A stretch of 64,000 nucleotides of DNA from a virus. Each line of letters begins with the position of its first letter. The stretch's first letter is position 1. Positions 5,742-64,000 of this stretch are shown here, in pieces. The stretch is from IMG/VR virus record IMGVR_UViG_3300025117_000031, positions 89,921 through 153,920 of that record; one strand, 5' to 3'. The notes under the pieces are model-generated. The model searched no databases and was not told where the DNA came from. It saw only the letters and a program-made list of their open reading frames with translations. Made by a program: the position numbers and the translations under genes.

Positions 5742-5930
5742 TCTAATTATCCCCTTCGAGACTTAAACCATGAACTCCTTAGTTAGCACAGTTGCTCGAT
5801 TCCTGCCCATGAGGAAGTTTCGTTCTGGCCGTAAGGCCAGAGCCAGAGCTTTCTTGGCAGCAGGCTATCCCCGCCAGGGCGGCGGTTCTAAGATTAATGG
5901 CTGCGTTGATGTCTCGGTCGTGGACAACCC
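5731..5930 (-). ncRNA. putative omegaRNA (reRNA) of TnpB copy 1; guide about ATAATTAGATTAAATTACGA
   Basis: TnpB omegaRNAs overlap the tnpB 3' end and right end. The two copies diverge just after GAAGGGG(ATA). The 5' boundary is a guess. Confidence 0.55.
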
Positions 5931-7035
5931 CACAAGCCTCGCAAACCCATTCTCGGACAGACAAAGGCAACGGTCCTTCTCGTCTTGTTCCGCAGTCGGA
6001 ACACAGCTTGGAAGAAGGGAACCAGCGGTCAGCAACGATGATTTCGCTGCCGGCAAGCGGAGCCTTATACGTGAGCTGACGCCTGATTTCCGACAAGGCA
6101 GCATCTGCAACCGACTTTGCAAGATGGTGATTTGCCATCATTCCTTTGACGTTCAAGTCCTCGATTCCAATCCGACGAAAGTCTCGGACCAGCCCAGCGG
6201 TAAGCTTATGTGTTACGTCTTTGCGGATGTTGGAAATCCGTTCATGCAACCGACCAAGCTTCGTTTTGGTCTTCTGCCAATTCTTCCCTCCTTTGACGCG
6301 ACGAGACATTTCCTTGTTGAGTCGTCGCAGTCTGGTTTCATGAGCACGCAGAATGCGCGGAGCCTCGACCCGCTCTCCCGTGGAGAGCACGGCAAGGTCT
6401 CGAAGTCCGAGGTCCACTCCAACCGCTTCTTGGGTTTCGCAGCGGTGAGGATAGGACCAGGAGTCGGAGACTTGAACTTGGATCGAGACGTACCAATGAC
6501 CGGCTTGTTTCGTAAAGTGAGCGGACAGGATTTTACCAGGGAATCTTATCTCTTGTCGGGTGCGGACCCAACCAAGCTTGGGGATTTTGACTCTTCGGCC
6601 GTCAAATCGGAGGGCTCGACCTTCAATAGCAAAGGTTGCTTTGTTCCATTTCTTCGACTTGAAACGGGGATAGCCGGGCTTTTGGCCAGATTTAACACGA
6701 CGAAAGAAGTTGGAGAAAGCAGAACCGAGGTTGGACAGCGCCGTATTGGCGACAGCCCACGGAAGATTTGCCATCCAAGGGAATTCCGTGGTTTTGCAGG
6801 CATTCAACTCGGTGTTAAGACTAATCCAAGACGGCTTTCCTCCGGCTTCGTATTGAGTTTTCCAACGGTCCAATCCCCAGTTGTAGACGAAACGAGAAAT
6901 TCCAGCGCAACGTTCGAAAAATGTTGCCTGGACGTTATTAAGATCCAGCCGAATGTGTTGGCCGAGGATAGTTATGGGGAGGTTATTATCAGGAGTTGTA
7001 GAGTGACGTTTCGACACATTATAAATATAGTACAA
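5779..7035 (-). CDS. tnpB: RNA-guided endonuclease TnpB (IS607-like); true start may be GTG at 7017
   Basis: N-terminal IRLDLNNVQ..F.RCAG.SRFVYNW; RuvC-I GVDLG; RuvC-II IEDL; Zn finger CSDC...CEAC; RuvC-III DRDINAA. Confidence 0.95.
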   Translation of the reverse strand: MYYIYNVSKRHSTTPDNNLPITILGQHIRLDLNNVQATFFERCAGISRFVYNWGLDRWKTQYEAGGKPSWISLNTELNACKTTEFPWMANLPWAVANTALSNLGSAFSNFFRRVKSGQKPGYPRFKSKKWNKATFAIEGRALRFDGRRVKIPKLGWVRTRQEIRFPGKILSAHFTKQAGHWYVSIQVQVSDSWSYPHRCETQEAVGVDLGLRDLAVLSTGERVEAPRILRAHETRLRRLNKEMSRRVKGGKNWQKTKTKLGRLHERISNIRKDVTHKLTAGLVRDFRRIGIEDLNVKGMMANHHLAKSVADAALSEIRRQLTYKAPLAGSEIIVADRWFPSSKLCSDCGTRREGPLPLSVREWVCEACGVVHDRDINAAINLRTAALAGIACCQESSGSGLTARTKLPHGQESSNCAN

Positions 7036-7088
7036 AAAGTGGAATGTGTTGATTTTTTTGTAAATTCATTCTTTTTAATAGGAGGAGA

Positions 7089-7129
7089 AGACTTAACCCA
7101 CGTTAACTAGAAGTTCGTGGGTTAAGTCT
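7089..7129. repeat. perfect 14-bp inverted repeat (hairpin) AGACTTAACCCACG / CGTGGGTTAAGTCT
   Basis: Arms 7089-7102 and 7116-7129 read directly; 13-nt loop can also pair (AACT/AGTT). Confidence 0.9.
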
Positions 7130-7137
7130 CAAGTTTA

Positions 7138-8925
7138 ATGACAAAGAAGGTTCCAATTAAATATACAGCAAGAGATTTTGAAAGCATTCGAGACTCTTTG
7201 TTGGACTATACCAAGAGATATTATCCAAACACTTACAAAGACTTTAGCGAGGCTTCGTTTGGTTCTTTGGTGATGGATGAGGTATCTATAATAGGCGATA
7301 GCTTATCGTGGTTTATTGACTATGCGGTAAACGAATCTTTTTTTGAAACTTCTTTAGAATATAATAACATAATTCGTCACGGCCGGTCTAGAGGTTGGAG
7401 CTTTACGGGGAATCCTTCTTCTTATGGTATTGCGACTTTTTATATTCTTGTTCCTGCAGCCTCAAATTCGCAGGGGCCAGACTCAAGATATTATCCCGTT
7501 CTTAAAGTTGGCAGTCAGTTTTCTTCTGCAGACGGTAAATCTTTTGTTCTTAGTGAAGATGTGGTGTTTTCTGCTACAGGAAACGATATCTTAGTAGCTC
7601 AAATAGGTGACAATGGTTATCCAACGTATTATGCGGTTAGAGCAAAAGGACAAGTTGTTTCCGGAGAGTTTGTTTATGAGGAAATTGTTGTAGGCGACTA
7701 TGAAAAATTCCCAAAATTAGAGCTTACAAGTGACGATATAGCGGAAGTTGTATCTGTTGTGGACTCTAGCGGCAAGGAATACTACGAAGTAGATTCTTTA
7801 TCACAAAACATAATTTATAAAGCTATTCCAAACTATACATCTTCGAGAGAGTATGCGGCTTATCTTATGAAGCCGTATGCTGTTCCTAGAAGATTTGTGG
7901 TCGAGAGAGAAAGGAGAAAAACATATCTTCAGTTTGGGCAGGGAAACGATTCTGATGACGCTACAATGGATTTAGTTGAACCTGCAAATGTTTTCTTAAA
8001 CATATATGGGAAAGACTATATTTCTACTGATTCTTTTGACCCCAGCCGATTAGTAAAGTCTGATTCTCTAGGAATTGCTCCTTCAAATACTACTTTACGC
8101 ATAAAAGTAAGGAAAAACACAACAGATAACGTCAACATTGGGGTTGGAACTTTGGTGAGAGTGGGAGAGGCGGTTTATGAGTTTGATAATGTCAACCAGT
8201 TGTCAACCTCCATTCTGTCTACAATTAAATCTTCTTTAGAAGTTACCAACGATGAGCCGATTACAGGCGACATAACTCTTCCGAGTACAGAGGAATTAAA
8301 AAAGAGGATTATGGGAGCCTTTTCTTCTCAGAAAAGAGCGGTTTCTTCAGAAGACTATAGGTTCGTTTGTTATGGAATGCCGGCTAAGTTTGGTTCAGTA
8401 AAAAGAGTTAATGTTGTAAAAGACAACAATTCTTTTAAGAGAAATCTAAATCTTTATGTGGTGTCTGAAGACCAAGATGGATATTTAACTGAGACAAATA
8501 CCACAATAAAAAACAACCTAAAAACTTGGATTACTCAGTATAAGATGATTAACGACACTGTTGACATATTGGATGCAAGAATTGTTAATTTTGGTATCAA
8601 TTTTGAGGTAATATCGTATCCAAGTAAAGAAAAATATGAAGTTTTAGAGTCTTGCATTTCTGCTTTAAAAGATGCGATGAAAATAAAGTTTGATATTGGT
8701 CAATCTTTGTCAAAATCAGAGATTTTTAAGACACTAAATGCAGTTGACGGAGTTGTGGATACTACAAAAGTAGAAATCGTAGAGAAACGAGGCGGAGTTT
8801 ATTCAGACTTTGGGTTTGATTTTGATAAATTTGCTAGTGCAGATGATCTTTTTATAGAGTGTCCTAAGAATTGTGTGTTCGAACTTAGAGACTTCGAAGC
8901 GGACGTAAAGGGAGTTGTTAGATAA
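7138..8925 (+). CDS. baseplate wedge subunit, T4 gp6 / baseplate J-like
   Basis: IKYTARDFESIRDSLLDY..YYP.TYKDFSEASFG N-terminus; YLQFG; QKRAVSSEDY. Confidence 0.9.
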   Translation: MTKKVPIKYTARDFESIRDSLLDYTKRYYPNTYKDFSEASFGSLVMDEVSIIGDSLSWFIDYAVNESFFETSLEYNNIIRHGRSRGWSFTGNPSSYGIATFYILVPAASNSQGPDSRYYPVLKVGSQFSSADGKSFVLSEDVVFSATGNDILVAQIGDNGYPTYYAVRAKGQVVSGEFVYEEIVVGDYEKFPKLELTSDDIAEVVSVVDSSGKEYYEVDSLSQNIIYKAIPNYTSSREYAAYLMKPYAVPRRFVVERERRKTYLQFGQGNDSDDATMDLVEPANVFLNIYGKDYISTDSFDPSRLVKSDSLGIAPSNTTLRIKVRKNTTDNVNIGVGTLVRVGEAVYEFDNVNQLSTSILSTIKSSLEVTNDEPITGDITLPSTEELKKRIMGAFSSQKRAVSSEDYRFVCYGMPAKFGSVKRVNVVKDNNSFKRNLNLYVVSEDQDGYLTETNTTIKNNLKTWITQYKMINDTVDILDARIVNFGINFEVISYPSKEKYEVLESCISALKDAMKIKFDIGQSLSKSEIFKTLNAVDGVVDTTKVEIVEKRGGVYSDFGFDFDKFASADDLFIECPKNCVFELRDFEADVKGVVR

Positions 8926-53940: not shown

Positions 53941-56103
53941 ATGAAGATGATGAAATCTATTATAGCAGGAGTGATATTCTTTCTTTTGTCTTGTGATGAA
54001 AGCTCCTGCTCTCAGCTTGTTATAAAGTCTGGCATTTCGGGAGATTTTGTTATAAAGTCTGGTGTTTCTGGGGATTTGATGGTCCAGGCAACATGTGGTG
54101 ATGGAGTAACAAACGGTACAGAGACGTGCGATGATGGAAATTTGGTAAGTGAGGACGGATGCGATTCTAATTGTGCAGACGAAGTTATTTTTAAGTTGGG
54201 ATATGATGAGATTGGGGGGAATTTGGTTTCTGGCCTTTCCCAGCTTTCCAAAAACCTCACCATAAACGGCATTGAAGTTGCGCCTAGCGTGTGGTGTGAG
54301 GGGCAGGACGCAGGCGCGTCGACGTGGGCTTGCGACTATGGCGGGACGCTGGCCGTTGTCAACGGTGGGGCGGACGTTACACCCGGTGTAGCGGCTCCAT
54401 TCACAGACGGCACAACTGCGCTTAGTGGTGGTGCCGATTATTTTCAGGCAAGCGCAAACACGGTTGGGGATATAGGTACAGAGGACTTTGCCCTAGAATT
54501 TATGACGAAAGCGCCAGCAGCAACTAGCTTTTTAGCACAAAAAGGTGGCACGGCTTTCTGGTCAATAACAAGCTATACCACTTCTAACCGGCTTTCAATT
54601 GATGATGGTCCAGACAATAAATATGCGGACTCTGTTGCCAGTGCTTTGTCGTGGACGCATACGATCTGCTTTGTGAATAGAGACGAGGCTAGCACAAATG
54701 GGATGGTTTGTTACGGTAATGCAACAGCAGGGACCGGTGTAGACGCTAGTTCTGTCGGCAACATGTCAGAAGCGACAACCCTAAAAGTTTTGGCGTCTGC
54801 AACGGGTGCGTTGCCCTTTGGTAGTAACCTAGTTCACGTCGCCATGTGGAAATACCCCTCCTGGCACAAAGCCGGCGCCGACGGTCCCGCAGAATGGGCC
54901 GTGATCGCGAAGCAGCGCTTTTACCAATTGGCCGGCATATACCCGCAAACCGCACCAACAAAACTTGCAACATATACAAGAGCGACCACAGCAACGCTTG
55001 AAATTCAGGACACACACACAAACAACGCAACCAACTTTTTTAATGTTGGCTCCGGTTGGCCTAGAGTTGTTCGAGACTGCGACAGCGACGAATGTTTAAA
55101 TGGTGTCTTGGCAGAACCTGCAATAACAAATAAAATACTTCAAAGCTCAGCATTTGGCACAACATGGACAAATATTGATGCCCTTGACGACATAGCGGAC
55201 GGCACAACCGACATATTTGGAACGGCTTTGGCAGATGGGTTTACAGCCGGAACAGGAACCTCTGTGCATGGCGTTACCCAAGCTGTGACATTAACTGCTG
55301 CAACACATACTTTTTCCGTATATGCCAAACCAGGAAACAGAGACTGGCTATATTTGTCAGATGACACAGTAGCCAACGCATATAGCTATTTTAATATTTC
55401 GTCTTGTGCTCTTGGCACAAAAGGGGCAGGAGCAAGCGAGGCTCTTGTGCAAGATGTTGGTGACTATTGCAGAGTTTCTATTGCGTATCTTGGAACAGCA
55501 GCATCACACACACATAAAATTGCATTTGCGGAAGCTGACACCGACAACGAATTTGCAGGGGATGATGCAACGGTATCAGGTTATTTACTTGGTGCTCAGG
55601 TAGAAGCATATGGCGCAGCAACATCTTTTATTGCAACGACAACGGCGCAAGTGACAAGAAATACAGACTCTTTAGAATATACTTTTACGGGACCAAACAC
55701 AGGGACAATGGAATTTAGTTTTATGTGCAAGAGTATTGACGCGCCGCATACGATCCAGGCTTTATTTTCTTTGTCAGATGGAACAAATGAAAATAGGGTT
55801 GGCTGGTTTATAAATACAAATACCAGCGTTGGAAGACAGCAAATATTAGTTGGGAATTCTAGTGTTTCCAATTTAATAGGAACTACAGATATTATGGACA
55901 ATTCTGTTCATTCGCTCACGGGGTTGTGGGGAACGTCAAATAATGCGGTTTATATTGATGATGTCTTAGAAGCATCTTCGGGAACGTCAATTTCTATTCC
56001 AAGCACGACAAAACTAGGTATTTCTTTAGGAGCCATGCAATATCAGCCCGCCTTTTGCATCCAAAACGGAGTTAGGATCTGGAACCGCCAGATCGCCCCA
56101 TAG
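53941..56103 (+). CDS. putative lipoprotein with myxobacterial-type Cys-rich repeat (DUF4215-like) and LamG-like domains
   Basis: MKSIIAGVIFFLLSC lipobox-like; CGDG....ETCDDGN....DGC...C; LLGAQVEA...ATSFIATT.AQVTR..D phage fibre motif. Confidence 0.65.
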   Translation: MKMMKSIIAGVIFFLLSCDESSCSQLVIKSGISGDFVIKSGVSGDLMVQATCGDGVTNGTETCDDGNLVSEDGCDSNCADEVIFKLGYDEIGGNLVSGLSQLSKNLTINGIEVAPSVWCEGQDAGASTWACDYGGTLAVVNGGADVTPGVAAPFTDGTTALSGGADYFQASANTVGDIGTEDFALEFMTKAPAATSFLAQKGGTAFWSITSYTTSNRLSIDDGPDNKYADSVASALSWTHTICFVNRDEASTNGMVCYGNATAGTGVDASSVGNMSEATTLKVLASATGALPFGSNLVHVAMWKYPSWHKAGADGPAEWAVIAKQRFYQLAGIYPQTAPTKLATYTRATTATLEIQDTHTNNATNFFNVGSGWPRVVRDCDSDECLNGVLAEPAITNKILQSSAFGTTWTNIDALDDIADGTTDIFGTALADGFTAGTGTSVHGVTQAVTLTAATHTFSVYAKPGNRDWLYLSDDTVANAYSYFNISSCALGTKGAGASEALVQDVGDYCRVSIAYLGTAASHTHKIAFAEADTDNEFAGDDATVSGYLLGAQVEAYGAATSFIATTTAQVTRNTDSLEYTFTGPNTGTMEFSFMCKSIDAPHTIQALFSLSDGTNENRVGWFINTNTSVGRQQILVGNSSVSNLIGTTDIMDNSVHSLTGLWGTSNNAVYIDDVLEASSGTSISIPSTTKLGISLGAMQYQPAFCIQNGVRIWNRQIAP
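54017..54076 (+). repeat. 30-bp tandem duplication (VIKSG.SGD x2)
   Basis: TTGTTATAAAGTCTGG at 54017 and 54047. Confidence 0.85.
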
Positions 56104-56197: not shown

Positions 56198-56341
56198 ATG
56201 ACAAATACACAAGATCACAACAATAGAGCAATGGAAATAGTTTCAAAATTAAAGGTTCCTGCACTTGTTGTAACAGCCGTTGCAACAGCGATGGTGGGGC
56301 TATTTGAAACATATAGGGAAGAAAAGAAAAAAGATGTTTGA
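56198..56341 (+). CDS. 47-aa single-TM peptide (not in ORF track)
   Basis: MTNTQDHNNRAMEIVSKLKVPALVVTAVATAMVGLFETYREEKKKDV; stop overlaps the cytochrome start. Confidence 0.5.
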   Translation: MTNTQDHNNRAMEIVSKLKVPALVVTAVATAMVGLFETYREEKKKDV

Positions 56342-56711
56342 ATTGGGGGAAAGAGAGATAAAGAATTTCTTTCTATTCTTATTAACTATTATAATCATTG
56401 TTTTTATTGTATTTCTTTCAAAAGTTTCCTATTCACAAGGATTAAACAAAGATACTTTGGATTGTTTATCTTGTCATGATGGAGTGATTGCCAAGGACAT
56501 AGCTTTAGAAAATTCGCATCCGGTAGGAATGACGTACCCTCCTCTGAGAAAAACAAACGAATATAATGTCTTTATAAGACTTCCTTTATACGAAAATAAT
56601 ACAATTCAATGTAAAACTTGCCACGGTGTAGGGTTGGAATCGCAACATTGGACAGAAATGCGAATAGCTTTATATAGAAGCGAACTTTGCCTAGAATGTC
56701 ATTCCATTTAA
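56334..56711 (+). CDS. tri-heme c-type cytochrome (doubled-CXXCH / cytochrome c3-like family)
   Basis: Signal/TM segment, then CLSCH, SHPVG..YP, CKTCH, LCLECH. Confidence 0.85.
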   Translation: MFELGEREIKNFFLFLLTIIIIVFIVFLSKVSYSQGLNKDTLDCLSCHDGVIAKDIALENSHPVGMTYPPLRKTNEYNVFIRLPLYENNTIQCKTCHGVGLESQHWTEMRIALYRSELCLECHSI

Positions 56712-58077
56712 GACTTAAACCACGAACTCCTTAGTTAACACGACTGCTGATAGACGAAACAACGAATTTACAAAAAAATCAACATATTTCACTTCGTGTG
56801 CTATATTTATAGTGTGCCGAAACGTCATTCTACAGCTTCCGACAAAAGCCTCATAACTATCCTCGGCCAACGCATTCGGCTGGATCTTAATAACGTCCAG
56901 ACAACCTTTTTCGAACGTTGCGCTGGAACTTCTCGTTTCGTTTATAATTGGGGATTGGACCGCTGGAAAGCTCAGTACGAGGCTGGTGGAAAACCGTCGT
57001 GGGTTAGTCTTAGCTCTGAACTGAATGCCTGTAAAACTACCGAATTTCCCTGGATGATCAAGCTGCCGTGGGCTGTTGCCGCAACGGCGTTGTCCAACCT
57101 CGGCAATGCTTTTTCCAACTTCTTTCGCCGTGTTAAATCTGGCCAAAAGCCCGGCTATCCCCGTTTCAAGTCGAAGAAACGGAACAAAATGTCCTTTGCT
57201 ATTGAAGGTCGAGCCCTTCGATTTGACGGCCGAAGAGTTAAGATTCCCAAGCTTGGTTGGGTCCGCACCCGACAAGAGATAAGATTCCCCGGCAAAATCT
57301 TGTCTGCTCACTTTATGAAACATGCCGGTCATTGGTACGTCTCGATCCAAGTTCAAGTCTCCGACTCCTGGTCCTATCCCAATCGCTGCGAAACCCAAGA
57401 AGCGGTTGGAGTGGACCTCGGGCTCCGAGACCTTGCCGTGCTTTCCACGGGAGAACGGGTCGAGGCTCCGCGCATTCTGCGTGCTCACGAAACTAGACTG
57501 CGACGATTCAACAAGGAAATGTCTCGTCGCGTCATAGGAGGAAGAAATTGGCAGAAGACTAAAATGAAGCTTGGTCGGCTGCATGAACGGATTTCCAACA
57601 TCCGCAAAGACGTAACACATAAGCTTACCACTCGGCTGGTCCAAGACTTTCGTCGGATTGGAATCGAGGACTTGAACGTCAAAGGAATGATGGCAAATCA
57701 CCATCTTGCAAAGTCGGTTGCAGATGCTGCCTTGTCGGAAATTAAGCGTCAGCTTACGTATAAAGCTCCGCTTGCCGGCAGTGAAATCATTGTTGCCGAC
57801 CGTTGGTTCCCTTCTTCCAAGTTGTGTTCCGACTGCGGAACGAGACGAGAAGGGCCGTTGCCTTTGTCCGTCCGAAAATGGGTTTGCGAGGCTTGCGGGG
57901 TTGTCCACGACCGAGACCTCAACGCAGCCATTAACCTTAGAACCGTCGCCCTGGCGGGGATAGCCTGCTGTCAAGAAAGCTCTGGCTCTGGCCTTACGGC
58001 CAGAACGAAACTTTCTCTTGGGCAGGAATCGAGCATTCATGTTAACTAAGGAGTTCATGGTTTAAGTCTCGAAGGGG
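56711..58077 (+). mobile_element. transposase-less IS607-like TnpB cassette, copy 2
   Basis: 30-bp inverted repeats at 56711-56740 and 58040-58069 (29/30 match); right end GAAGGGG shared with copy 1. Confidence 0.88.
56796..58049 (+). CDS. tnpB: RNA-guided endonuclease TnpB (IS607-like); true start may be GTG at 56814
   Basis: Intact GVDLG / IEDL / CSDC..CEAC / DRDLNAA; about 40 aa differences from copy 1 by hand alignment. Confidence 0.95.
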   Translation: MCYIYSVPKRHSTASDKSLITILGQRIRLDLNNVQTTFFERCAGTSRFVYNWGLDRWKAQYEAGGKPSWVSLSSELNACKTTEFPWMIKLPWAVAATALSNLGNAFSNFFRRVKSGQKPGYPRFKSKKRNKMSFAIEGRALRFDGRRVKIPKLGWVRTRQEIRFPGKILSAHFMKHAGHWYVSIQVQVSDSWSYPNRCETQEAVGVDLGLRDLAVLSTGERVEAPRILRAHETRLRRFNKEMSRRVIGGRNWQKTKMKLGRLHERISNIRKDVTHKLTTRLVQDFRRIGIEDLNVKGMMANHHLAKSVADAALSEIKRQLTYKAPLAGSEIIVADRWFPSSKLCSDCGTRREGPLPLSVRKWVCEACGVVHDRDLNAAINLRTVALAGIACCQESSGSGLTARTKLSLGQESSIHVN

Positions 58078-58097
58078 ATATGAAGTAGCAGATTGTA
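57900..58097 (+). ncRNA. putative omegaRNA of TnpB copy 2; guide about ATATGAAGTAGCAGATTGTA
   Basis: Position at tnpB 3' end/right end; 5' boundary uncertain. Confidence 0.55.
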
Positions 58098-58179
58098 GGT
58101 TTCTGTAGACAAACATCTTCCCAAATCTATAATAAAAACAAGAGCTTCTGCCTTCCTAGTTATAAAGAGGGCAAGAAAG

Positions 58180-60332: not shown

Positions 60333-62033
60333 ATGGGTATTCTACAAAAACTAACTGAAGGTATTGTGAAAAGAGATTTTCGCAAAGAAACCTCAGCTCT
60401 AGTTCAAAAATGGGAAAAGATCGGTCTTCTGGAAGGTCTCTCTGGTATTAAAAGAGATAACCTAGTTGTTCTGTTAGAGAACGAAGCAAAAGAACTTCTG
60501 CGCGAAGCAACCACAATGGAAGCCGGTGCAGTTGAAGGTTTTGCCGCTGTTGCGTTCCCCCTGGTCCGCAGAGTGTTTGGTGAGCTGATTGCCCAAGACC
60601 TGGTGTCTGTGCAACCGATGTCGCTGCCTGCTGGTCTGATCTTCTTCATGGATTTCGTTCGTAATGCAGCTCGTGGTCCTTTCGCTGCTAGCGAGTCAAT
60701 CTATGGTGGTGGTGTGACTGGTTCTGGTATCGCGTCTGGTATTTCTCTTACTAGCTCTTCGGCTGAAACTGGTTATTTCAATCTGTCTCAAGGTTATTCA
60801 AAGGCCACTGGTAGCACAATCGTTGCGTCGTCTTCGTTTACCTATAGCGCTCCGATTACTCTGTCCACCGGCTCTACGAATATGACCGATGCAAACAAAT
60901 TAATCTTCCGTTTTGACGCTGACCTACTGTCTGAAGGCGACGATGCAAATACTGCTGGTACAAATCTTTATCTGCACAAAATCACTGTTAATCCTTCAAG
61001 TTCTTGGGACACTCAATTTGACGTGAACAGTCTTATGGCCGTCAATGCGACTGGTTTCACTAGCTCTTGGAACAACAGACTGATCCGCAGACTAACTGAT
61101 TATACAAGCGGTGTTCTTTCTTTATTTGTTGTGTCTGATAACGGAACTGGTGTTGTGGGTGCAAGTGCCAATATTACTATTACCTTCCCTGTGACCGATA
61201 CACTGGCTGCTGGTACAAGCCTGGGCTCTATCGTTGGTAGCAACTACTGGCCTCTAGAGAACGAGACTGATATTCCTGAGCTGAATATCAAAGTAAATTC
61301 TCTGCCCATCGTTGCCGGCTCTCGTAAGCTGAAAGCAAAGTGGACCCCCGAGCTAGAGCAGGATCTAGGCGCGTTCCACAATGTTGATCCCGAAGTTGAG
61401 CTGACTGGCATTATGTCCGAAACCGTTGCTCTAGACATCGACCAGGAAATCCTGGGCGAGCTGATCAAAGGTGGAACCGCTGGCAAACTTTACTGGAGTC
61501 GTAGACCTGGTAAGTTCGTAAACCGTCTGACTGGTGCTGATATTACTTCCAATGGTGCGAATCTGCCCGACTTCACTGGCAACGTAAGCCAATGGTATGA
61601 GACTCTTGTCGAGACCATGAACGACCTGAGCGCTGATATCCATCGCAAGACGCTGCGAGGCGGTGCGACCTTCGTTGTGACTTCACCTGAAATCGCCAAC
61701 ATCCTTGAGTTCACTGCTGGCTTCCGTGCAGACGTGACTGGTGATGCTGAGAAGGGTTCCGTGGGGACTTATAAGAACGGCTCAATCAACAAAAAGTGGG
61801 ACATCTATGTTGATCCGTACTTCCCCCGCAATGTGATTCTGATGGGTCGTAAGGGTAAAGGCTTCTTGGAGTCGGGGTTTTGTTACGCGCCGTACGTCCC
61901 CCTTGAGATGACCCCTGTGATCCTCGACCCGGATGACTTCACTCCTCGTCGCGGCTGTCTGACCCGATACGCTAAGAAGATGGTAAGGTCAGATATGTAT
62001 GGTCTTGTAATTGTTACGGATTTGGAAGGCTAG
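60333..62033 (+). CDS. major capsid protein (T4 gp23-like)
   Basis: KW...GLLEG; AFPLVRRVF..LIA.DLVSVQPM..P.GLIF; RKLKA.WT.E..QDL; YAPYVPL; F.PR.G..TRY. Confidence 0.96.
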   Translation: MGILQKLTEGIVKRDFRKETSALVQKWEKIGLLEGLSGIKRDNLVVLLENEAKELLREATTMEAGAVEGFAAVAFPLVRRVFGELIAQDLVSVQPMSLPAGLIFFMDFVRNAARGPFAASESIYGGGVTGSGIASGISLTSSSAETGYFNLSQGYSKATGSTIVASSSFTYSAPITLSTGSTNMTDANKLIFRFDADLLSEGDDANTAGTNLYLHKITVNPSSSWDTQFDVNSLMAVNATGFTSSWNNRLIRRLTDYTSGVLSLFVVSDNGTGVVGASANITITFPVTDTLAAGTSLGSIVGSNYWPLENETDIPELNIKVNSLPIVAGSRKLKAKWTPELEQDLGAFHNVDPEVELTGIMSETVALDIDQEILGELIKGGTAGKLYWSRRPGKFVNRLTGADITSNGANLPDFTGNVSQWYETLVETMNDLSADIHRKTLRGGATFVVTSPEIANILEFTAGFRADVTGDAEKGSVGTYKNGSINKKWDIYVDPYFPRNVILMGRKGKGFLESGFCYAPYVPLEMTPVILDPDDFTPRRGCLTRYAKKMVRSDMYGLVIVTDLEG

Positions 62034-63591: not shown

Positions 63592-63879
63592 ATGACGCAG
63601 AAATATAAAGAAAAGATTGTGGTGAAAGAAGTTAAAAAAGTTATTGAACATTCTTTTGTTTGCAACAAGTGCGGATATGAAGCTTCTTTGCTTCAAGGAG
63701 AAAAAGAGACAATTAGACAAAACATATCTAAGAGAGCAAAGATTAAGGAAAGCTTCTTTTATTTTTTTGTGTCTGGCGGATATTATTCAACATTTCCGCA
63801 AGACGGACAGGAAATAGAATTTCATCTTTGTTCCGACTGTTTAAAGCAGCTTATTGATTCTTTTGAAGTTCCCGCTTGA
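63592..63879 (+). CDS. small Zn-ribbon protein
   Basis: CNKC ... LCSDC; AGGAG RBS. Confidence 0.7.
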   Translation: MTQKYKEKIVVKEVKKVIEHSFVCNKCGYEASLLQGEKETIRQNISKRAKIKESFFYFFVSGGYYSTFPQDGQEIEFHLCSDCLKQLIDSFEVPA

Positions 63880-63904
63880 CATCTTCTTTTATTTTTGTTA
63901 TCCT
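63876..63904 (+). promoter_or_regulatory. sigma70 promoter TTGACA-N17-TATCCT with extended -10 TG
   Basis: Perfect -35, 17-bp spacer; ATG at 63913. Confidence 0.65.
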
Positions 63905-63912
63905 CGGCCGAA

Positions 63913-64000
63913 ATGGAAAGAGAACAAAACAGAGGAGAGCGGCTTTTTTGGGAGCTTTGCAATAAAGGCAAAGACAAGGAAGCGGCTTTAATTCTGTCGA
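63913..64000 (+). CDS. 3'-truncated hypothetical protein
   Basis: MEREQNRGERLFWELCNKG... open to the window end. Confidence 0.45.
   Translation, partial: MEREQNRGERLFWELCNKGKDKEAALILS

Follow-up and report, generated by a model that had tools for sequence, protein, structure and literature searches.

The best-described systems close to the element reported here belong to the IS607 family (IS607, IS1535, ISXfa1 and the C. botulinum IStron), whose members combine a serine transposase (TnpA) with TnpB and an omegaRNA and whose TnpB clade is tied to serine recombinases carrying a MerR-type helix-turn-helix (HTH). The ends of IS607 elements contain imperfect inverted repeats close to the termini and insertion produces no target duplication (PMC6188088), while the IS607 TnpB promotes retention of the element by cutting the donor site once it has been rejoined (bioRxiv 10.1101/2023.11.20.567912). 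Solo TnpBs have also been described inside transposon ends, with movement in trans as the suggested mode (PMC10691335). Here we describe a TnpB/omegaRNA element without tnpA that is bounded by terminal inverted repeats (TIRs) in a phage genome, the viral record IMGVR_UViG_3300025117_000031. The window, i.e. the whole stretch of 64,000 nucleotides (nt) that was analyzed, represents bases 89921-153920 of this 153,920-bp record, which is rated 85% complete, and it contains two copies of the element, referred to as copy 1 and copy 2.

The phage element resembles the IS607 family in its TnpB clade, in an omegaRNA that overlaps the 3' end of tnpB with its scaffold reaching the right terminus and the flank serving as the predicted guide, in a homologous right-end architecture, in the imperfect inverted repeat near the ends and in the lack of target duplication. 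Subterminal repeated motifs (ACGAA) are present as candidate TnpA sites. The element differs from the family in having no tnpA, in a repeat of about 47 nt that extends to both termini and is almost perfect in some of the copies, in a right end that reads GGGGA followed by A or T and not GG, and in its occurrence in a phage together with miniature derivatives made of promoter plus guide.

Other systems share some of these features. Solo TnpB elements (IS1341-type) and PATEs, which are IS200/IS605 miniatures, are likewise TnpB-only and moved in trans, and short derivatives that retain the ends and the guide RNA are known from PATEs. However, the IS200/IS605 type depends on a Y1 TnpA and on subterminal hairpins of one strand, whereas the ends here are inverted repeats, a Y1 gene was found at one of 45 related loci and a left hairpin occurs in copy F3 (copy 1 of the window) only. 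Fanzor1, Fanzor2* and the IS630 (DDE)-associated TnpBs also have symmetric ends with the right TIR built into the guide-RNA scaffold, but they involve DDE transposases and target-site duplications, whereas the phage element has neither and its lineage is of the IS607 type. Two complementary segments accompany a TnpB-like nuclease gene in the tracrRNA/crRNA anti-repeat system of Cas12f as well, but in the phage the left segment is located upstream of the promoter, is unconserved and shows no covariation, and there is no repeat-spacer array. The element is an unusual variant of the IS607 family and not a new kind of system. What is new here is a non-autonomous IS607-type element with guide-RNA-derived terminal repeats and guide-only miniatures in a phage.

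The main finding is that the left repeat is an inverted duplicate of the last ~47 nt of the right end. The right repeat in turn corresponds to the final hairpin, the closing stem and the tail of the predicted guide RNA, a structure supported by covariation. The cassette begins on the left with its terminal repeat, followed by a spacer, a sigma-70-like promoter and then tnpB; the omegaRNA scaffold overlaps the 3' end of tnpB and terminates at the right terminus. The features of the two copies, in window coordinates, are as follows.

56702 to 56748, plus strand: left terminal inverted repeat of copy 2, 47 nt, an inverted copy of the right-end terminus; it comprises an outer 9 nt (56702-56710), the 11-mer AGACTTAAACC (56711-56721) and an inner part to 56748
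56779 to 56807, plus strand: promoter-like site of copy 2, TCAACA-17-TATATT with a TG before the -10, downstream of the left repeat
56796 to 58049, plus strand: tnpB open reading frame (ORF) of copy 2, with the true start probably a GTG at 56813
57939 to 58078, plus strand: omegaRNA scaffold of copy 2, ending ...CTCGAAGGGGA, predicted to form six helices with 38 pairs
58032 to 58078, plus strand: right terminal inverted repeat of copy 2, which also holds the last tnpB codons and the stop
58079 to 58098, plus strand: predicted guide of copy 2, the flank directly after the scaffold, with no other match in the genome
5730 to 5749, minus strand: predicted guide of copy 1
5750 to 5889, minus strand: omegaRNA scaffold of copy 1
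5750 to 5796, minus strand: right terminal repeat of copy 1, the last 47 nt of its omegaRNA scaffold
5779 to 7035, minus strand: tnpB ORF of copy 1, encoding a protein 91% identical to that of copy 2 and oriented opposite to the flanking baseplate wedge genes
7089 to 7102, minus strand: extra inverted 14-nt arm of copy 1, pairing with 7116-7129 in a perfect 14-bp left-end hairpin
7102 to 7138, minus strand: left terminal repeat of copy 1, diverged, its terminus abutting the ATG (7138) of the next baseplate gene

The earlier note had counted two copies of the cassette. The whole record contains eight copies of the family, four full and four miniature:

Genome 783-2172: full copy F1
Genome 74650-76044: full copy F2
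Window copy 1, tnpB on the minus strand: full copy F3
Window copy 2, tnpB on the plus strand: full copy F4
Between genome positions 22.5 and 37.6 kb: miniature copies M1-M4, about 220-290 bp each

In each miniature a left end (repeat, promoter and first codons) is fused in frame to the last ~140 nt, and the whole omegaRNA scaffold is kept in all four. Copies 1 and 2 are 91% identical from the left repeat to ...CGAAGGGGATA, beyond which they are unrelated. One full copy (93% identical) and one miniature were found in an otherwise unrelated phage contig, G001, which is the only related phage contig and shares the element and not its flanks. Two motif scans of viral contigs, using right-end and repeat motifs, yielded G001 and an identical miniature in one more contig, three high-GC loci from other viral contigs (L261, L262, L264) and three unrelated matches, with nothing further. 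In the search for empty sites, phage records queried with the element and its flanks gave no match, and no paralogous empty site was found when the flanks were compared with one another.

The inverted repeats of about 30 bp noted before are real, and they are longer (about 47 nt) and run to both termini. In copy 2, AGACTTAAACCACGAACTCCTTAGTTAACA occupies 56711-56740 and its reverse complement is found with one mismatch at 58040-58069. A 17-mer from the repeat has four occurrences in the window at up to three mismatches against 0.15 expected, and no shuffle reached four. Ungapped extension of the copy 2 arms gave 48 nt (56701-56748 and 58032-58079) that are 85% complementary. The same layout had been claimed for copy 1, and it is borne out by a right arm at 5758-5779 and a left arm at 7109-7130, which are 86% complementary. 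Two further details given by the earlier note also agree with our data: the right arm takes in the stop of tnpB with the three codons before it, along with the 3' end of the predicted guide RNA, and a spacer of 20-31 nt that differs between copies separates the left repeat from an AT-rich promoter region common to both.

For copy 2 the left boundary was placed at about 56702 instead of 56711 because the outer 9 nt, to the left of AGACTT, mirror the right-end tail TCCCCTTCG; this match is 9/9 in M2, 8/9 in F1 and M3, and 6/9 in F4 and M4. The left end of M3 and the reverse complement of the F4 right end match at 44 of 48 positions. In M2 the terminal 9-mer is perfect and the rest of the left end is gone, apparently by deletion between two CTTCG repeats. 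It had been stated that no GG sits at the mirror position on the left, which does not hold, as CC, the mirror of the right-end GG, was found at 56704-56705 of copy 2. This CC is present in five of the eight left ends, and the left flanks end in CA in six of the eight copies. The right ends read ...GGGGA followed by A or T here and ...GGAACGG in the autonomous relatives. No direct repeats were seen at the boundaries of any of the eight copies on inspection of the flanks, with no empty-site comparison behind this result. The hairpin at the left end of copy 1 (7089 to 7129) has a predicted energy of -16.6 kcal/mol as DNA (z -8.8) and is specific to this copy; a conserved left-end hairpin was rejected, being significant in F3 alone.

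The right end was analyzed in an alignment that covers the final 145 nt of all eight copies, of both G001 copies and of four relatives with 55-66% identity. Compensatory double changes were found in 17 of the 38 scaffold pairs and 96.6% of the cells are paired; none of 500 shuffles came up to these values, and only 1-6 double changes were obtained in slid controls. Helix 5, in which TCGAG pairs with CTCGA, is changed on both sides in F1, the G001 miniature and the relative L175. Conservation of the scaffold structure extends to relatives with as little as 55% protein identity, and the 47-nt right repeat corresponds to the whole of helix 6 (the last hairpin), a linker, the 3' strand of the closing helix 5 and the GGGGA tail. 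The guide is predicted to start right after GGGA because homology among all copies and relatives ends there. Each predicted guide matches its own flank only, and second targets were searched for in the genome with none found. No Rfam family was matched at its gathering score.

The left end shows a different pattern of conservation. Mean pairwise identity among all copies is 0.93 for the last 20 nt of the right end, 0.88 for the 48-nt right arm and 0.875 for the 50-nt promoter region (0.90 among the four full copies), whereas the left 11-mer reaches 0.79 (0.77 among the full copies) and the rest of the left arm 0.52-0.63 (0.46-0.60 among the full copies). The fourfold-degenerate sites of tnpB have an identity of 0.84 among the four full copies. 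The promoter-like site at 56779 to 56807 is the best-conserved part of the left end and the only good one. The changes in the left arm are mostly C-to-T/A, a drift expected from the AT pressure of a phage with 38% GC on an element with 51% GC. A left arm resembles the right arms of the other copies as much as that of its own copy, with no covariation, and pairing between the two arms of one element was rejected on these grounds.

At least four versions of the left end exist (types A and B, the truncated M2 and the G001 miniature), and that of the G001 miniature resembles those of L262 and L264. The tnpB-proximal windows examined in the relatives contain no repeat like that of the phage copies, and the autonomous relatives have just weak or partial repeats, upstream of tnpA. 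The long repeat appears, from this distribution, to have arisen or to have been retained in the lineage of this phage alone. A motif position-equivalent to the 11-mer, (C/T)GAGCAAGT, recurs inverted in the left ends of L058 (P below 0.005) and L014 (P 0.075), and the left end has three ACGAA motifs within its first 66 nt, whereas the right end has one.

Both tnpB ORFs contain the HTH_OrfB_IS605, OrfB_IS605 and Cas12f1-like_TNB domains, and the protein aligns end to end with ISDra2 TnpB (E 2e-72). This alignment agrees with the report of intact RuvC residues: the motifs GVDLG, IGIEDL and HDRDLNAA (RuvC D/E/D) and both CxxC pairs of the zinc finger are all found, and none of the catalytic or zinc residues varies among 23 relatives. 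Variable sites among the copies number 126 at third, 52 at first and 37 at second codon positions, and from this concentration at third positions tnpB is considered to be under purifying selection. Homologues number in the thousands, of which the closest outside these phages are 60-75% identical.

For the lineage we counted 45 TnpB loci of at least 41% identity that had enough upstream sequence. A Resolvase ORF lies within 1.3 kb upstream of tnpB at 22 of them, 17 with a MerR HTH, and Y1_Tnp was found at one. When ORFs just upstream of tnpB in relatives were tested, eight of ten were Resolvase proteins, six of them with a MerR HTH. The element is assigned to the IS607 lineage because its TnpB clade goes with MerR-HTH serine recombinases and hardly with Y1. 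The tnpA-bearing relatives that the earlier note had suggested looking for exist, are of the serine-recombinase type and share the right-end architecture: GCAGGAA.TCAGC, a variable hairpin and AAGTCTGAYGGAACGG in the autonomous relatives, and GCAGGAATCGAGC, a hairpin and AAGTCTCGAAKGGGA in the same layout in the phage element. The two architectures are homologous as judged from these motifs.

Several further observations concern tnpB and its relatives. In the high-GC relatives of 61-66% identity L174, L262 and L264, a short ORF is located between the left end and tnpB, replacing tnpA; that of L264 (3003-3242, plus strand) scores as a CopG-type ribbon-helix-helix protein (RHH_1, 26.4 bits), and the phage copies seem to retain only its first codons (VPKR...), fused to TnpB. 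An 18-nt inverted repeat that is 83% complementary (57351-57368 and 57660-57677) lies within tnpB, with arms resembling right-end motifs, namely GTTCAAGTCTC of the relatives' right ends and GGAATCGAG of helix 5. The second arm (57660-57677) encodes the catalytic IGIEDL motif, and the resemblance may be due to chance. A distant TnpB-like stretch, probably part of the Cas12f-like gene of the phage, is found at genome 10584-11153 and is 24% identical over 197 residues (E 3e-8); recent descent of this gene from the present TnpB was rejected at that identity.

We regard the element as a non-autonomous IS607-type TnpB/omegaRNA element that is moved in trans and in which TnpB acts as a homing nuclease, with a probability of roughly 0.6. 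The absence of tnpA from the window noted earlier extends to the whole 153.9-kb record, where neither a Y1 (PF01797) nor a resolvase (PF00239) gene was found, and searches of the same record for DDE_3, rve and DDE_Tnp_1 genes gave none. The left repeat of copy 2 is only about 85 nt from tnpB. Because of this short distance and the lack of a PF00239 match in the record, the element can be at most a non-autonomous IS607 derivative. The earlier proposal of a distinct TIR-bounded element moved in trans stands as regards the TIRs and the movement in trans, but not as regards a distinct family, since the TnpB belongs to the IS607-associated clade and the right end is homologous.

Under the proposed mechanism both arms, chiefly the 11-mer AGACTTAAACC / GGTTTAAGTCT, would be the sites at which a serine TnpA supplied in trans by a host, or by a co-resident autonomous IS607, paired and recombined the ends, the left end as an inverted duplicate of the right end providing the second end recognised by the recombinase. 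Such mobilisation would have produced the four full copies and the four promoter-plus-guide miniatures with no target duplication. Once inserted, TnpB and the omegaRNA, guided by the flank after ...GGGGA, would cut element-free alleles in co-infecting phage genomes, and recombination after cutting would copy the element back. Homing of this kind would keep the right end selected in every copy and allow the left arm to drift.

Several points weigh against this reading. A TnpA with matching ends was not found, and trans-mobilisation is to that extent inferred. In place of the canonical GG the right end has GGGGA plus A or T, most left flanks finish with CA, and no core dinucleotide stands out as common to the two; furthermore, identical inverted ends orient a non-palindromic core oppositely, so that a serine recombinase should invert the element and not excise it. 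The left arm is not maintained in place, because it is more divergent among copies than synonymous sites. No significant left-right repeat was found in the G001 miniature or in L262 and L264, the relatives of 64-66% identity, so that the lineage can do without the long repeat. The context counts also cover the 45 loci and not the 60-75% identical relatives in the protein database. A palindromic target, with the element lying within TCCCCTTCGAAGGGGA, was considered as well. It was rejected because such sites show no enrichment in the unoccupied state and because in unrelated genomes the element is accompanied by the right half.

The strand opposite to tnpB, read in register with the tnpB codons, contains no stop from one repeat to the other, with the following frames in the two window copies.

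56715 to 58058, minus strand: stop-free opposite frame of copy 2, 447 codons, in register with the tnpB codons, with its ATG in the right repeat and its TAA in the left repeat
5770 to 7110, plus strand: stop-free opposite frame of copy 1, 446 codons, co-oriented with the baseplate operon

In copy 1 this frame starts 28 nt after the stop of the upstream gene and ends 27 nt before the next start codon. The frame is open in all eight copies, and in most of them its stop falls inside the left repeat. No TTA, CTA or TCA codons occur in tnpB, whereas they make up 3.9% of codons in the genes of the phage, so that 16 would be expected in 417 codons. Third-position A is found in none of 44 CTN/TCN codon columns but in 31 of the 125 columns of the remaining fourfold families (P 5e-5), and the 139 distinct synonymous changes among the copies created no opposite-strand stop where 5.9 were expected (P 0.002). 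Among the homologues the frame is open in 0/35 with a GC content of 0.50-0.55 and in 23/39 with a GC content of 0.64 or more, so that the ancestor may have had it from base composition alone. The opposite-frame products are 77-79% identical among copies, compared to about 90% for TnpB. A folded protein was rejected as the product of this strand, given no Pfam match and a model with a mean predicted local distance difference test (pLDDT) score of 25.5; the lack of a predicted fold suits a relay and not a protein. The copies F1 and F3 and the relatives L262 and L264 lie backwards between co-oriented genes, with the open frame nearly filling the gap. When read inwards, the repeats contain stops in all three frames plus an ATG in the right repeat, and when read outwards they again contain stops in all three frames. 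A relay of translation by which polarity would be avoided is a reasonable reading of these codon and stop patterns. That the repeats also bound a selected stop-free frame, with which ribosomes could cross the element in either orientation within a phage operon, is a tentative suggestion that we consider rather doubtful.

Four other accounts of the repeats were weighed. The left repeat could be a functionless by-product of one inverted duplication or template switch in an ancestor, carried along and decaying ever since. Its low identity among copies (0.46-0.63 against 0.84 at fourfold sites), with mostly C-to-T/A changes, would then be expected, as would the four different left-end versions within the family and the absence of the repeat from the G001 miniature, L262 and L264. 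On the other hand, the repeat is kept in all seven non-truncated left ends, even the truncated M2 has a perfect terminal 9-mer, the 11-mer core is markedly better preserved than its surroundings and the multiplication to eight copies is limited to the repeat-bearing version; we consider this account unlikely. The symmetric 47-bp termini also look like classical TIRs, as if the cassette had been captured by a TIR-recognising DDE-type transposon with the repeats as its binding sites. Precedents for this are the DDE-associated TnpBs with symmetric ends (PMC10691335) and the Fanzor TIRs that form part of the guide scaffold (PMC10711439). Capture of this kind is very unlikely because target-site duplications, TA included, occur in no copy and the record contains no DDE_3, rve or DDE_Tnp_1 gene; the association of the TnpB clade with serine TnpA also speaks against it.

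The complementarity of the arms over 47 nt, together with a bottom-strand left end that looks like the right-end terminus followed by flank, is what a role of the left repeat as RNA would lead one to expect, either as an anti-repeat to the 3' end of the omegaRNA or as a second partial scaffold with the left flank as guide. The earlier note had raised this as a possible early step towards Cas12, but the left arm is located upstream of the promoter-like site, is poorly conserved, does not covary with its own right arm and is absent from the G001 miniature and the relatives of 64-66% identity. Moreover, the helix-5 strand in the left arm of copy 2 is CTTAA and not CTCGA and no longer matches, the far-side flanks have no common motif comparable to the CA ending the left flanks, and the Cas12f-like gene of the phage is only distantly similar (24%) to this TnpB; such a role is highly improbable. 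Finally, the repeats may mainly mark the ends of the stop-free opposite frame by providing a restart codon on entry and a stop on exit, which is compatible with movement in trans. Starting at the ATG of the right repeat, the frame extends as far as the left repeat or beyond it in 4/4 full and 4/4 miniature copies, and the missing TTA, CTA and TCA codons (16 predicted), the 139 synonymous changes of which none makes a stop, the lack of open frames in the 35 GC-matched homologues and the backward orientation of F1, F3, L262 and L264 are all consistent with it. However, the frame is often open by base composition in high-GC relatives and the signal may be partly inherited, no clear ribosome-binding site precedes the ATG and 18 stops interrupt the frame in the 55% relative L175, so that marking frame ends is improbable as the main role of the repeats. 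Mobilisation in trans by a serine TnpA, with homing by TnpB, remains our preferred explanation.

The genes flanking the copies are phage structural genes, and copy 1 is located between two baseplate wedge genes in the orientation opposite to them. The left terminus of copy 1 directly adjoins the start codon of the following baseplate gene (ATG at 7138), and any ribosome-binding site of that gene is therefore inside the element. The gene upstream of copy 2 (56280-56711) takes its last three codons and stop (TCC ATT TAA) from the left repeat. A repeated segment at the end of the window (63877-64000, genome 153797-153920) is 97% identical to two places in G001 and holds a 30-nt block (about 90% identical) common to genome positions 28241, 31986 and 44324 and to the flank of M3. 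Two GC-rich patches (0.50-0.51 in a 0.38 genome) at 54001-55000 and 61001-62000 are not TnpB elements, and the first falls within a 720-codon tail-protein gene. The two 720-codon ORFs adjoining F2 and F4 were found to be unrelated.

In this element the last hairpin and tail of the predicted guide RNA double as a transposon end, and a single inverted duplication may have given a transposase-less TnpB cassette two usable ends. If so, guide-RNA cassettes, and miniatures of promoter plus guide, would have a simple way of spreading through phage genomes, and it would parallel the absorption of TIRs into guide scaffolds by eukaryotic Fanzors. If the relay is true, insertion of the element would avoid the polarity caused by untranslated RNA, making it a transposon with a built-in translation relay, and the stop-free strand, if selected, bears on how mobile elements spare the operons they enter. 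With its single TnpB and eight guides, the family also represents a compact natural set that is usable for defining the transposon-associated motif (TAM) and the boundaries of the scaffold.

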